From the IMG/VR virus record IMGVR_UViG_3300027653_000025, positions 1-42,533 of that record: a stretch of 42,533 nt of DNA; one strand, 5' to 3'. Below are positions 1,017 through 26,810 of the stretch, in pieces (position 1 is the first letter of the stretch; every line of letters starts with the position of its first letter). Made by a program: the position numbers and the translations under genes. The DNA is from a virus (Duplodnaviria > Caudoviricetes). The notes beneath the pieces are model-generated. The model was not told the origin of the DNA, made no database searches, and saw nothing but the letters and a program-made list of their open reading frames with translations.

Positions 1017-1118
1017 CGTTCTGTCGGTCTGGGTGTGTGTTTCCTTGTTACAACCGTAAGATACGAAACGGAGAGGCGTAACGCAATGTATGGCGGACGG
1101 CTTCACAGAAGCTTCACA
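1017..1118 (-). promoter_or_regulatory. Repeated promoter copy 1 (tandem box, sigma70-like -35/-10, AC-rich leader)
   Basis: TGTGAAG at 1118-1112 and 1107-1101; TTGCGT 1086-1081; 17 bp; TATCTT 1063-1058. Confidence 0.85.
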
Positions 1119-1176
1119 CATTGGTCACCCGAGGTAATTGATCCCGGTGCCGATAAGCGGCCATCCGCTATATGAC

Positions 1177-1291
1177 TCTGAACAGGTCGCTCCTGCGGAC
1201 AAACCTCGTCTGTTTTCGCTTCTTCCATCGTAGTATCTCCAGTGTTTTATTCAATCGCGGCGCTGGTTGGCCGCAGAGCTTAGAGTTATAC
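1177..1291 (+). mobile_element. attC: Integron attC site
   Basis: TCTGAAC-AGGTC-GCTCCTGCGG-A-CAAACC...GGTTGG-CCGCAGAGC-TTAGA-GTTATAC; 115 bp; extrahelical C and A. Confidence 0.8.
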
Positions 1292-1657
1292 TGCTCGGCA
1301 GACGAGTTCAGCTTTTCCGTCACGGATGCAGGGCGCACACAGAAACGATTCGTCGCCGCTCGATCTGAATAGCAGGTCGCCGCAATACATACACTTGCCA
1401 TGCGGCTCTTCTTCGCTCTCAAGCCTTTCGTAGACTATTGGCGGGCTCTCCCATTGATGAGCAGTGGGGTCAATGACTTCGCCAGCAGGCGATTCACACC
1501 ACCAGTGCGGACGATACTGCACGCCTACCAGAACATGACCACGAGCGCGGTTGAGTTCTGGAAATGAATCGCACATCTCCGCAGTAGCCTCGGCGCATCT
1601 CAGCCTCGCAGAGTCGGGCGTTGGGTAGTGCTCGCTTATCCAGTCGTTGTAAGTCAT
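1286..1657 (-). CDS. Cassette-borne hypothetical protein (C/H/D residues and C-terminal CxxC pair)
   Basis: 123 aa ORF between two attC sites; stop TAA is the TTA of the R' box. Confidence 0.8.
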   Translation of the reverse strand: MTYNDWISEHYPTPDSARLRCAEATAEMCDSFPELNRARGHVLVGVQYRPHWWCESPAGEVIDPTAHQWESPPIVYERLESEEEPHGKCMYCGDLLFRSSGDESFLCAPCIRDGKAELVCRAV

Positions 1658-1661
1658 CGCA

Positions 1662-1750
1662 GTATAACTATCGCTGTAGCGGACGCGCCGCCGTCCGCTT
1701 GTGGTTTGTCTGATCGCGGCATCGGCGCGCCGCTAAGCTTTGAGTTAGCC
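1662..1750 (+). mobile_element. attC: Integron attC site
   Basis: GTATAAC-TATC-GCTGTAGCGG-A-CGCGCCG...CGGCGCG-CCGCTAAGC-TTTGA-GTTAGCC; 89 bp. Confidence 0.8.
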
Positions 1751-2023
1751 CGTTCCCTTGTGTTCGAGCATTGCGTTCCAGCTACGTGCAAAGTCTGTCG
1801 TCGCCGCCTCCCCGCGCTCTTGATACTCAGGTGACAGTTCACACGTCCAACACCACCACACATCCTCCTCAAACTCAACCCACATCGTTGATTCGTGCTC
1901 ACCGCAAAACGAACATGGGGGCCACTCCGAATCATCGTGGAATGGGCTAACAAGTCGCTCCTGCGGACCCGCCTCCGGCGTGTCCTTCGTCGCTTTCGGT
2001 TGTGTTTCCATCGTGTTCTCCAT
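1745..2023 (-). CDS. Cassette-borne small zinc-ribbon-like protein (CSFC...CWTC)
   Basis: 92 aa ORF; start lies inside attC 1945-2059, stop in the R' box at 1745. Confidence 0.75.
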   Translation of the reverse strand: MENTMETQPKATKDTPEAGPQERLVSPFHDDSEWPPCSFCGEHESTMWVEFEEDVWWCWTCELSPEYQERGEAATTDFARSWNAMLEHKGTG

Positions 2024-2059
2024 CGTTATGTTGGCGGGCCGCAGAGCTTAGAGTTATGC
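1945..2059 (+). mobile_element. attC: Integron attC site
   Basis: GGCTAAC-AAGTC-GCTCCTGCGG-A-CCCGCC...GGCGGG-CCGCAGAGC-TTAGA-GTTATGC; 115 bp; arms near-identical to 1177-1291. Confidence 0.85.
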
Positions 2060-2218
2060 CCCTTTTAGCCAATCCCAATCGAGGGGCTGGTAGCCGCTGC
2101 GATACTGCCTCGCTCGGCGGTCACCGCACCGGGCGCACTGCGCGTACACGTAGACGCCCGAGTCGCGATGCTCGCGCCAGCGGTGTCCAGCCAGCCTACA
2201 CCAGAGCTTCGCCTTCAT
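2054..2218 (-). CDS. Small phage protein, DUF1660-like (CxxxGHxW...CxRCG); absent from the ORF track
   Basis: Manual translation MKAKLWCRLAGHRWREHRDSGVYVYAQCARCGDRRARQYRSGYQPLDWDWLKGA (54 aa). Confidence 0.7.
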   Translation of the reverse strand: MKAKLWCRLAGHRWREHRDSGVYVYAQCARCGDRRARQYRSGYQPLDWDWLKGA

Positions 2219-5632: not shown

Positions 5633-5733
5633 CGTTCTGTCCTGTCTGGGTGTTTGTTTCTCTATCTACCGTAAGATACGAAACGGAGAGGCGTAACGCA
5701 AGTATTGTCCTCCAGCTTCACAAAGGCTTCACA
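5633..5733 (-). promoter_or_regulatory. Repeated promoter copy 2
   Basis: TGTGAAG 5733-5727 and 5722-5716; TTGCGT 5701-5696; 17 bp; TATCTT 5678-5673. Confidence 0.85.
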
Positions 5734-5751
5734 CAACAATCGTGGCGGGTC

Positions 5752-6185: not shown

Positions 6186-6289
6186 TGTTCTGTGTGTCTT
6201 GGTTGTTGTTTGTCCCTCTAACAACCGTAAGATACGAAACGGAAAGACGTTACGCAAGTATCGCCCACCGGCTTCACACAAGCTTCACA
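6186..6289 (-). promoter_or_regulatory. Repeated promoter copy 3
   Basis: TGTGAAG 6289-6283 and 6278-6272; TTGCGT 6257-6252; 17 bp; TATCTT 6234-6229. Confidence 0.85.
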
Positions 6290-6291
6290 AA

Positions 6292-6489
6292 TCAGCCACG
6301 ACCCTGCTTTCCGTGGTCGAGTCGCTGCCTGTGCAGCCACTCATTGAAGCCGTCGCGCCCCATCTCATGGACGATACTCGGGACGAGCAGCCGCTCGGAC
6401 GGGCCCCAGTTCGCGGGATCTGGTTCGAGCAGTACTTGTTCGAGGTATCGCTTTTGCAGGGATTGGATTCGCTCGTTTTGATCGGTCAT
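6292..6489 (-). CDS. Hypothetical protein
   Basis: 65 aa, ATGA overlap with the RusA-like gene. Confidence 0.6.
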   Translation of the reverse strand: MTDQNERIQSLQKRYLEQVLLEPDPANWGPSERLLVPSIVHEMGRDGFNEWLHRQRLDHGKQGRG

Positions 6490-8798: not shown

Positions 8799-9944
8799 TC
8801 AGTAATAGAGTTCTCGGTTGCTCTGTAGGGCTTCCCACGCGGGGGTCTTAAACAGAACACCGAAACCGAGCGACACAGCACCGATATCGGAGCCGGTGGC
8901 CTTAAACGGTTCGCGGTACTTGTCGAGCACTCCGGCATAGAACAGGTCGTGTACTTCGCTCTCGATTTGTTGGAGCATGTCGTAGTCGCGGTCTTTCCAC
9001 GCTGCTTGTGCCGCCTTTCCGAGCTCCGGCTGCAGATAATCAAGGAACATCAACACGCCCAGCGTCGGGCGTACGATCGTGGCAGCGCGTAACACCTCCT
9101 CGCTGCTCCAGTTGGCGATGCGGCGGGGCAGTTTCGTTACGGTGGTGCGTTCGACCTGCACGTATCCACGCGTCCGACGGCTGAGCTCCTCCCACAAGAT
9201 CTCGCCCCCGAGCATCGGCCCGGAGTTGCCCGCCACGCGAATCGGGTACGTACGCGCCAGCATGTGCACCCGGAGATCAAGGCCGGGGTGAGACGGCGAG
9301 GCGCTGATGTCGTTGAACGCCTGTGCCGGGGTGATATCACGACTGGTGGCAAACGGGTAATGCCCGAAGTGGAGACCAAGACCCGCGCCTTGTGTCATTT
9401 CGACGTGTACGCGGTTCCCCTCGTCGATGTGCGAGTTAACAAGAGACGTCACATCGCCGAGATACTTCTGCAACTCACGAAAGTCTCGAGCTATCGGTGC
9501 GCGGCGCATTATCTTCTCCGCCTGTGCCGCACCTACGCCCTCGCGGGTGGAGCCGATCTTATCGCGGAGGTCCGCCTCTGCTTTCTCATGGGTATGAGTG
9601 ATCACCGTGGCCAACGGATCAATGACGAGCCGGTGCTCCACTTCCACGCCGATCTCCCGGAGCGCGGCGATCTCTTCGCGGAGCACATCGACATTTAGCA
9701 GGGCAGCTCCGGGTAAGGCAAGTGTCGTTTCTGGGCACTCGACACACGCGGCCGGGATATGGCGCAGGGCAACCACGCCACGCGGAGTAATCACCGAATG
9801 TCCTGCATTCGGCCCCCCGGTGCGCAGGGCGAGCGCGGGTTTTTCCTCGGCGGCGAGCCATTGGGCATACGCGCCTTTCCCACAGCTACCATACTGGCCA
9901 TCCAGTACGATCGTCAGCCGGGAACGTAGTTTTCCTTCTTCCAT
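8799..9944 (-). CDS. purZ: PurZ (N6-succino-2-amino-dAMP synthetase; PurA paralogue), PurZ0-like
   Basis: GQYGSCGKG (Ser where PurA has GDEGKG Asp), GGPNAGHS, GSTREGVG, EMTQG, YPFATSRD, RTYPIRVAGNSGP, ERTTVTKLPRR, MFLDY; likely start MEEGK at 9944 (381 aa). Confidence 0.9.
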   Translation of the reverse strand: MEEGKLRSRLTIVLDGQYGSCGKGAYAQWLAAEEKPALALRTGGPNAGHSVITPRGVVALRHIPAACVECPETTLALPGAALLNVDVLREEIAALREIGVEVEHRLVIDPLATVITHTHEKAEADLRDKIGSTREGVGAAQAEKIMRRAPIARDFRELQKYLGDVTSLVNSHIDEGNRVHVEMTQGAGLGLHFGHYPFATSRDITPAQAFNDISASPSHPGLDLRVHMLARTYPIRVAGNSGPMLGGEILWEELSRRTRGYVQVERTTVTKLPRRIANWSSEEVLRAATIVRPTLGVLMFLDYLQPELGKAAQAAWKDRDYDMLQQIESEVHDLFYAGVLDKYREPFKATGSDIGAVSLGFGVLFKTPAWEALQSNRELYY

Positions 9945-9978
9945 CTTCTCTTCTGGTTGGATGTAGGTGGACAGACAC

Positions 9979-10007
9979 AAGAAACGAACCACGGGGGGCA
10001 GGGTCAA
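9979..10007 (-). promoter_or_regulatory. Putative purZ operon promoter, divergent from promoter copy 4
   Basis: TTGACC (10007-10002), 17 bp ending TTCG, TTTCTT (9984-9979). Confidence 0.6.
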
Positions 10008-10015
10008 CTGTTTTC

Positions 10016-10123
10016 CGTGAAGCTTTTGTGAAGCCGTTAGAAGGGTGTTGCGTCGAGACTCTCCGGTTCGTATCTTACGGTAGTTCAAGCAACACCAACC
10101 CACCCAAAATAGGAGATACTCCG
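10016..10123 (+). promoter_or_regulatory. Repeated promoter copy 4
   Basis: CGTGAAG 10016, TGTGAAG 10027; TTGCGT 10048; 17 bp; TATCTT 10071. Confidence 0.85.
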
Positions 10124-11121: not shown

Positions 11122-11200
11122 CCTTCGCACGATCCTGACTCGAGTGGGGCCCGTGCCCGCAGCGCGGGCCCTGCATCAGCGGATGATCCGATGCGTTTTG

Positions 11201-11303
11201 TGTGAAACGTTTGTGAAGCTTATTCACGGTACTTGTGCAACGGTTTCCGGATTCGTATTTTACAGTTGTAATCGAAACACAAACCACCCAGACCGAGACC
11301 ACG
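11201..11303 (+). promoter_or_regulatory. Repeated promoter copy 5
   Basis: TGTGAAA 11201, TGTGAAG 11212; TTGTGC 11233; 17 bp; TATTTT 11256. Confidence 0.85.
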
Positions 11304-11863: not shown

Positions 11864-11920
11864 TCCACCGGCCGGGGCTCGTGCCCCGGCTATTTATATT
11901 GGAGAGGGTTGGACGTTTTG

Positions 11921-12025
11921 TGTGAAGTCTTTGTGAAGCCTCTCTACAATACTTGTGCAACGGCCCACCGTTTCGTATTTTACGGTAGTAAAGGGAACGA
12001 CAAACCACCCAGACCAAGCAAGCCA
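11921..12025 (+). promoter_or_regulatory. Repeated promoter copy 6
   Basis: TGTGAAG 11921 and 11932; TTGTGC 11953; 17 bp; TATTTT 11976. Confidence 0.85.
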
Positions 12026-16330: not shown

Positions 16331-16862
16331 GGCGGGGGCGATCGCAAGGGCTGTTGCGGCGGTGCATACCCTGCTCGGACAAGAGCTCGGCGACGAAGCG
16401 GTCAAGATCTATACACGTACCCTGCTGGATGAGGGGTTCGACGTGGACGACGTACGCCGAACCGCGTCACAGATGACCAAGAGCCCGACGATCGCCGAGA
16501 AGGTCAGGTACAAGGCGCCGATCCTTCCGGCCGACTGGATCATCCGGGCCGAGATCGTCAGGTGGCGTCTCCGTGGGGTCAAGGTCGACCGTGTATATTC
16601 ACAGCGGGAAGTCGAGGACATACTCAAGGACGATCGCGATCTCAGACGAGACGATTTTGGCGCGTCTGTCGTCGACGAGGCGAACCGGCCGGTGGGTTAC
16701 AGGCTCCGGACGCAGAAGCAGGGCCCGATACCCGCCGCGAACCCGTATCTCCGGGACGACTGGGAAGCGGCTTTGCAGGAGGAGTTCGACGCCTATATGG
16801 AAGAGCTTAAGGCCAACCCGCACGTTCCGCGTGAAGGGTTTGTGAAACCGGAGGGGCAATAA
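16146..16862 (+). CDS. Putative helicase loader / replication accessory protein (true start uncertain, near 16300-16362)
   Basis: Directly follows the initiator; Y..TL.D..FD..DVR..A helical pattern. Confidence 0.5.
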   Translation: MILTLSGRRTMQDGKRSQRVATESTHLRDFLKEGPANLARQQPQRPEQPKTSTAISTRGTDEAGAIARAVAAVHTLLGQELGDEAVKIYTRTLLDEGFDVDDVRRTASQMTKSPTIAEKVRYKAPILPADWIIRAEIVRWRLRGVKVDRVYSQREVEDILKDDRDLRRDDFGASVVDEANRPVGYRLRTQKQGPIPAANPYLRDDWEAALQEEFDAYMEELKANPHVPREGFVKPEGQ

Positions 16863-16891
16863 TTGCGCAGGGGCTTTCCGTTTTATATCTT
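16830..16891 (+). promoter_or_regulatory. Repeated promoter copy 7, upstream of the packaging/structural operon
   Basis: CGTGAAG 16830, TGTGAAA 16841; TTGCGC 16863; 17 bp; TATCTT 16886. Confidence 0.75.
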
Positions 16892-16973
16892 ATGATTTAC
16901 CACCGGAGACAGGCGAGGAGAGGAACCGGAGACGGTCGATGTGGTAGAAGGACCGAACATACGCAACGCTAAG

Positions 16974-26429: not shown

Positions 26430-26810
26430 ATGGCAGCGATTCCATCGGTAGAGATCGAGATCGGGGGCAAGACGCGGGAGTTAAAATACCCACTCATGTC
26501 CTTCTCGATCGCTCAGCGCCGCTACGGGATACGCATCCCGATCTCGGCCATGACTGACCCGACGATTGCGGACATGGCCGAGGCGGTATGGCTCGGGCTT
26601 CTGCACGACTATCCGCGTCTCGATCTGTCTCGCGTGATCCAGTGGGTTGAGGAAGAGGAACACCCTCTCTTTGAGACGTGGGCGCGGGCGCAGGGGCCAC
26701 TACTCGAAGCCCTTGAACGTCTCGGCGCGAAGACGAAGACGGACACCGGGGAGGCGAGGGAAGAGGATAACCCGGAGGACCTACTGGTCCCTTTGGACGA
26801 GAGCCCATGA
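26430..26810 (+). CDS. Tail assembly chaperone (gpG-like)
   Basis: Between tube and tape measure; IEIGGKTRELKY. Confidence 0.8.
   Translation: MAAIPSVEIEIGGKTRELKYPLMSFSIAQRRYGIRIPISAMTDPTIADMAEAVWLGLLHDYPRLDLSRVIQWVEEEEHPLFETWARAQGPLLEALERLGAKTKTDTGEAREEDNPEDLLVPLDESP
26789..26795 (+). other. -1 ribosomal frameshift slippery site C CCT TTG
   Basis: X XXY YYZ in correct phase; -1 frame open into ORF 26807-27187. Confidence 0.7.

Follow-up and report, generated by a model that had tools for sequence, protein, structure and literature searches.

Reversed attC sites with gene stop codons at the predicted crossover in the early region of a tailed phage

Introduction

How could an operon of small phage genes exchange its members and stay readable? 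The question is raised by the left end of IMGVR_UViG_3300027653_000025, a whole virus record of 42.5 kb with an estimated completeness of 62%; the window analyzed here is its full 42,533 nucleotides. PHROGs assignments identify a tailed phage, with terminase, portal, capsid and tail genes on the plus strand and an early region of small leftward genes on the minus strand. A cluster of hairpins resembling integron attC sites lies within this early region, beginning 1.2 kb from the left contig end. Integron integrases (IntI) recombine the folded bottom strand of attC at the AAC of the R' box. An earlier note on this DNA had read the sites as translation signals as well, with each cassette carrying its own start and stop and inserting directly behind a resident stop codon. 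We consider it probable that the phage carries three clustered attC sites whose genes lie on the bottom strand and stop at the predicted crossover, one of them likely starting in a loop, and that cassettes would be exchanged behind a stop codon, with the operon staying readable, by an integron integrase that the host likely supplies.

Three attC sites in the phage early region

A purpose-written attC scanner (score of at least 12) detected exactly three sites in the 42.5 kb, with scores of 14.75, 15.0 and 17.5 (Table 1). The control, ten base shuffles of the record, yielded 0.2 sites per record at 12 or above and none at 14 or above. Applied to phage TJE1, the scanner recovered three sites, two of which are the published, assayed ones. 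It overlooks some real sites: the published H101 attC2 scored 11, and P12002L attC1 was found by motif only.

All three sites possess R'' (..AAC) and R' (GTT..) boxes, and their lengths fall within the range of 57-141 bp given for attC (PMC5027507). The L''/L' spacers are 5/5 nt in sites 1 and 3, which have an identical right arm of ~21 nt; the left spacer of site 2 is 4 nt, which is atypical, and a second assembly of the phage has identical letters there. According to Nivina 2016 (PMC5027507), extrahelical bases define which strand of attC is top and which is bottom, with a G and a T separated by 6 bp on the R'' arm of the bottom strand. Here they lie on the left arm in the plus orientation, so plus is the top strand. 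The canonical bottom-strand hairpin is the minimum free energy (MFE) fold for site 2 (-25.0 kcal/mol, L pairing 0.96) and site 3 (-20.7 kcal/mol, L pairing 0.90), while site 1 folds weakly (canonical fold at -9.2 kcal/mol, MFE at -9.9, L-box pairing with a probability of 0.06).

With three attC sites in one orientation within 0.9 kb and no integron integrase (PF00589) in the contig, the locus has the makeup of a CALIN, the name for an attC cluster without an integrase; it lacks the intI of a complete integron, and both of its cassettes are reversed relative to canonical ones, with genes on the bottom strand. Since the 62%-complete contig gave no PF00589 match for any tyrosine recombinase, we infer that IntI would come from the host.

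Table 1. Features of the attC array and its surroundings in the window.
Feature	Position	Strand	Remarks
~88-nt promoter-like repeat, copy 1	1036..1123	-	TTGCGT-N17-TATCTT by eye; left boundary of array
41-aa ORF, likely remnant	1103..1228	-	starts in site-1 loop: GGAG 1240-1237, N8, ATG 1228
attC site 1	1177..1291	+ (top strand)	115 bp; extrahelical G and T on bottom strand; crossover 1285/1286
123-aa phage protein, no named family (cassette 1)	1286..1657	-	start codon 4 nt outside R''; stop (TAA) on site-1 crossover
22-aa ORF, possible translational coupler	1654..1722	-	starts in site-2 loop; ends ATGA over 1657 start
attC site 2	1662..1750	+ (top strand)	89 bp; extrahelical C (not G) and T; crossover 1744/1745
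88-aa (ATG 2011) or 92-aa (ATG 2023) zinc-ribbon-like protein (cassette 2)	1745..2023	-	TAA at site-2 crossover
attC site 3	1945..2059	+ (top strand)	115 bp, canonical; extrahelical G and T; crossover 2053/2054
54-aa DUF1660 (PF07874) gene, resident anchor	2054..2218	-	24.8 bits vs cut-off 21.4; TAA/C = right end of array

The ~88-nt promoter-like repeats occur at 1036-1123, 5651-5738, 6207-6294, 10009-10093, 11194-11278, 11914-11998 and 16854-16897. They carry tandem TGTGAAGC-like boxes, in both orientations, ahead of small early genes. A sigma-70 scan did not flag copy 1 (1036-1123).

Stop codons fall on the predicted crossover

TAA closes the minus-strand ORFs of 123 aa (1288-1286), 92/88 aa (1747-1745) and 54 aa (2056-2054), and each of these stops coincides with the TTA within an R' GTTA box, whose G lies at 1285, 1744 and 2053, respectively. 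The claim that three genes stop at the R' crossover was thereby borne out. TAA serves as the stop in 3 of 20 other minus-strand ORFs and in 8 of the 26 plus-strand ORFs checked elsewhere in the phage. The triplet is inherent to any GTTA box, so that the informative part is only the reading frame and the ORF length. Taking the crossover as G/TT, cassette 1 spans 1286-1744 (the 123-aa gene and site 2) and cassette 2 spans 1745-2053 (the 88/92-aa gene and site 3). In the mRNA direction each cassette consists of its own attC, a gene and TAA, bounded by AA|C. The DUF1660 gene is without an attC of its own.

Translation starts

Translation of cassette 2 is predicted, and likely, to begin in the loop of site 3, where GGAG (2021-2018) precedes the ATG at 2011 by 6 nt; the second in-frame ATG at 2023 has no Shine-Dalgarno (SD) motif ahead of it. 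The loop-started frame has a codon score of +14.2, about half of it from its 21 site-encoded codons, vs -24.6 for an overlapping frame of 94/99 aa, which was rejected as the real cassette-2 gene. A near-relative copy of cassette 2 (run X2) gives no clear purifying signal, since 6 of the 8 listed changes are non-synonymous. No close relatives of the 88-aa and 54-aa proteins were found outside this phage.

The other starts differ. No SD motif lies ahead of the 123-aa start at 1657, and the 22-aa ORF that overlaps it has none either and a codon score of -2.3, so a coupler role, comparable to that of the short attC ORFs reviewed in PMC8876359, is possible but unproven. One candidate explanation, a 1-nt loss in site 2 that detached the 123-aa gene from a loop start, was set aside as less likely: non-cassette homologues begin at the same Met, and the R'' offset differs from that of loop-started homologues. 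In site 1, the 41-aa ORF has a neutral codon score (+0.1). It does run into promoter copy 1, as had been proposed, its stop lying inside the repeat (1036-1123), and its truncation is plausible, short of proof. The second assembly differs from the record by a single base in 4929, at 1155, which cuts this ORF from 41 to 24 aa and so fits a remnant.

The GGAG-N6/8-ATG signals described earlier are present in the loops of both 115-bp sites (ATG 1228 and 2011), and so are the peptides CPQERPVQ and GPQERLVS. The likeness of these peptides follows from a shared DNA arm and is not independent protein homology; a search for the P.ER.V motif would overlook the majority of cases, as LFG, LVR or xCS is what other families of sites yield. 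Of the proposal that each cassette carries its own start and stop, the stops hold in three of three genes, and the loop start fails as a rule, being found in one of three intact genes: the 123-aa start lies outside site 2 and the 54-aa gene has no attC, which makes the rule over-general. The earlier model is partly supported, in that it fits the TAAC layout for stops and insertion and over-generalizes starts.

The 123-aa protein has invariant Cys, His and Asp residues (CAEAT, HWW, DPT) and two CxxC pairs. We read these residues as hints of a zinc ribbon and a triad of the transglutaminase/papain type. Among named Atlas clusters the nearest is YunG-like (0.81), which is a lead only.

Alternative cassette states in near relatives

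Contigs of run X2, from a different study than run X1 (which may be the run behind this record), were compared at the array. One X2 contig of 732 nt matches 1741-2058 with 10 differences and has another left neighbor; at the site-3 crossover it holds ~280 extra letters, known by length only, after which the DUF1660 gene resumes at 2063. In another X2 contig, 1288 is joined to 2062, placing a site-1-like arm straight onto the DUF1660 gene; the short side of this joint is just 20 letters and falls in the right arm common to sites 1 and 3. The loose end of this contig resembles the site-1 loop, with GGAG kept. Run X1 shows further loose ends at 1954, 1994 and 2037, similar to other loops and flanks. 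Judging from these contigs, two or more further cassette states occur at the DUF1660 anchor in near relatives. The proposed insertion directly behind a resident TAAC is supported, as the X2 contigs abut the same DUF1660 stop with other neighbors.

A GC-rich hairpin at 2230-2258, immediately upstream of the DUF1660 gene, scores neither as attC nor as terminator. Relatives part company near 2222-2234.

More distant matches were few. A blastn search of 1160-2230 against GenBank phages returned no match, and the best terminase matches, sought for the host group of the phage, are less than 30% identical. Exact and near-exact arm patterns found only the second assembly of the same phage among viral contigs and nothing among genome contigs; a left-arm pattern had matches in 2 of 251 genomes of one phylum. 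Two plasmid matches to site 3 were judged to be chance. A looser right-arm pattern gave 18 loci, four of them with a site: the second assembly, another reversed site present in two copies, and one weak site. In the reversed site at L443 2498-2582 and L450 254-338, the L'' box gives GGAG and the R'' box gives ATG, and this GGAG-N8-ATG opens an 84-aa ORF.

Breakpoints among homologues of the 123-aa protein

The 123-aa protein has 11 matches in one search and 36 locus rows in others, the phage itself included. A site scoring at least 14 lies within the fetched flank of 13 of 34 homologue loci (L007-L040). Many other homologue loci have no site and an ordinary start, so the family also exists outside cassettes. 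Twelve loci picked for an attC-like 5' arm were compared at their breakpoints. In eight of these a scored site lies upstream, reversed in every case, and the N-terminus is read through the arm (LFG). At all ten loci with a readable 3' end, AAC is read as Asn and unrelated tails follow; five of the ten have a scored downstream site. These homologues follow a second layout: a loop start, AAC read through as Asn, and a stop in the next loop.

In all 21 pairs of seven loci, identity over the 40 nt ahead of the downstream AAC is 0.78-1.00 and falls to 0.20-0.47 beyond it, and the upstream sites go along with the homologue gene from AA|C onward. This drop in identity fixes the crossover at R', where the homologues do not stop; top-strand recombination at R'' is rejected, the homologue breakpoints being at R'. 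As far as these alignments show, neighbors change at AA|C.

Long reversed arrays of GAAC-type sites accompany 123-aa homologues at L007/L035 (8 sites in 8.3 kb) and L008 (7 sites). L035 is a virus record with no integron integrase match. Among virus records other than the present one, four with reverse arrays, all incomplete, gave no integron integrase.

Viral and bacterial attC sites compared

Two patterns were used to collect viral contigs (104 loci with the first, 121 of ~150 loci with the second), and bacterial genomes contributed 138 loci from 8 of the 64 parts of the collection plus 31 loci from a further scan. Within each collection scan, full flanks cover only the first 80 loci, and locus L419 (genome G044) is excluded from all counts. 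Between adjacent sites, viral cassettes were 47 reverse, 3 canonical and 55 unclear (n=105; first pattern 25, 1 and 27, n=53; second pattern 22, 2 and 28, n=52), and bacterial cassettes were 0 reverse, 40 canonical and 42 unclear (n=82); about half of the cassettes are unclassifiable, and gene calls are longest-ORF heuristics.

For the crossover stop, the longest arriving bottom-strand ORF of at least 50 aa was examined at each TAAC site, the viral set being that of the second pattern. TAA at the crossover was the stop at 39 of 71 viral vs 3 of 30 bacterial TAAC sites (Fisher p=1.9e-5), several sites per contig being counted with only identical ones merged, so that they are not independent; by locus the counts are 22/33 vs 3/22. 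The remaining viral TAAC sites comprise 10 that read AAC in frame, 1 other and 21 with none. At GAAC-type sites a stop there is impossible, and 52 of 70 read AAC in frame.

Because the longest-ORF rule had filed site 3 of the phage as starting after R'', loop starts were recounted without it. Among GAAC-type sites, a loop ATG opens an ORF of at least 40 aa past R'' in 47 of 78 viral and 3 of 98 bacterial ones. In this type, 21 of 41 read-through stops overlap the loop ATG as ATGA, and a 4-nt SD motif accompanies only 9 of 45 loop starts. Short TAAC-type viral sites show no enrichment of loop starts (TAAC set: 13/79 viral vs 3/34 bacterial), and the loop starts of the TAAC set lie mostly in sites of at least 80 bp (11/31 vs 3/13). 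Short TAAC sites often start at GTTATG in R'', in 14 of 79 viral sites (8 with SD) vs 3 of 34 bacterial sites (none with SD).

Proposed mechanism and alternatives

The mechanism that we favor would begin with IntI cutting the folded bottom strand at the R' AAC, and the incoming cassette would join a resident attC or the TAAC of the DUF1660 gene, which is a GWT target when read on the other strand. Because the bottom strand is the sense strand here, the cut would fall directly after TAA; the resident TAA would be left whole, and the new gene would be co-directional with its own TAA. Translation would start from GGAG-ATG in the long loop of site 3 and, for site 2, at or just after R'', perhaps by ATGA coupling. 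In the sister layout, with GAAC-type sites, the frame would run on through Asn into the next loop in place of a stop. We likewise infer the identity of the enzyme, its host origin and translation from loops. More broadly, phages may maintain a mirror-image pool of cassettes of their own that relies on host integron integrases and in which attC doubles as the interface for translation, with two layouts (a TAAC stop at the crossover, and GAAC read-through with ATGA coupling in the loop) and one gene family found in both; the reversal would silence phage cassettes in host integrons and host cassettes in the phage operon. We see the chances of this wider picture as evenly balanced.

The hairpins might instead descend from attC, the genes now being swapped by phage homologous recombination between similar arms and not by IntI. 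The shared right arm of sites 1 and 3 would suit such exchange, as would the RecE-like exonuclease encoded by the phage (13089-14069, PHROGs) and a contig without integrase. We think it unlikely, since homologue breakpoints fall at AA|C with unrelated arms beyond, and extrahelical bases and box spacing are kept while loops differ.

Nor does a one-time capture, leaving an inert relic in which start and stop signals arose later from purine-rich bottom strands and GTTA boxes, agree with the two or more further cassette states that near relatives show at this anchor, or with the rarity of such ORFs in bacterial sites of the same families (3/98, 3/30). GTTA does supply TAA by itself, attC bottom strands are described as purine-rich (Nivina 2016, PMC5027507), and site 1, with its weak fold and polymorphic ORF, and the atypical site 2 would fit decay; even so, we hold the relic to be decidedly improbable. 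The hairpins carry SD motifs and start codons within one operon, as RNA structures regulating translation or transcript processing and merely resembling attC might. Against this, the AAC/GTT boxes, the spacers and the two bulges 6 bp apart match those of an IntI DNA substrate, neighbors change at AAC, and an Rfam gathering scan of the whole record gave no matches, leaving an RNA-only role very improbable indeed.

Relation to known systems and implications

Phage CALINs are already known: Qi 2023 (PMC9892861) reports 17, with 5 of 6 tested sites active with IntI1. The likeness to the present locus lies in several attC sites and small genes without intI in a phage. Its main text is silent on bottom-strand genes, loop starts and crossover stops; its Dryad annotation file may show polarity. 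TJE1, one of these phages, differs in having canonical polarity in 2 of 2 cassettes. At H101 attC2 and P12002L attC1 the flanking genes are also on the bottom strand, but the sites are intergenic. The published attC positions of H101/P12002L are 26529-26585 and 27931-27987 in L440 and ~30005-30058 in L147. What is added here is the count of crossover stops with controls and the alternative cassette states at one anchor stop. No description of the reversed crossover-stop layout was found in full-text searches, subscription papers aside.

Canonical integron cassettes share the attC anatomy and the AA|C crossover. Stop codons in the TAAC box are also described for them (PMC4909258); these often lie in the TAAC box of R'' on the top strand, as at 11 of 33 bacterial sites here. 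The phage cassettes are the mirror image, with a bottom-strand gene, attC at its 5' end and the stop in the R' crossover box, and, placed in a host integron, a cassette of this type would run antisense to Pc. Translational coupling by ORF-11 of attI1 and by short ORFs inside attC, as reviewed in PMC8876359, is similar in its crossover-supplied stop and short ORFs in att sites. Those ORFs, as the review presents them, are top-strand leader peptides, whereas in the phage it is the cargo gene, on the opposite strand, that starts or stops within a site. IntI is reported to insert cassettes at GWT sites (attG) without attI (bioRxiv 10.1101/2022.09.11.507474), and the DUF1660 TAAC, which is GTTA on the other strand, resembles such a target. 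That preprint describes no preference other than GWT, together with an avoidance of essential genes, whereas the phage target falls on a stop codon and is used again.

If the proposal is true, it would provide a site-specific, non-disruptive route to accessory-gene mosaicism in phage early regions, make phages users and not mere carriers of integrons, and mean that natural attC sites can code for protein and bear translation signals yet stay recombinogenic. N-terminal motifs common to unrelated phage hypothetical proteins would be explained as attC arms. Caution is needed with tools that presume canonical polarity, as they give each gene the wrong attC site.

One further feature of this phage concerns its DNA. 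The minus-strand gene at 8802-10103 has its best PHROGs match (E 2e-62) in the PurZ-type "2-aminooxy adenylosuccinate synthetase" family, and it adjoins a kinase and a dUTPase fusion. Should the phage DNA carry 2-aminoadenine, the attC hairpins would hold it too.
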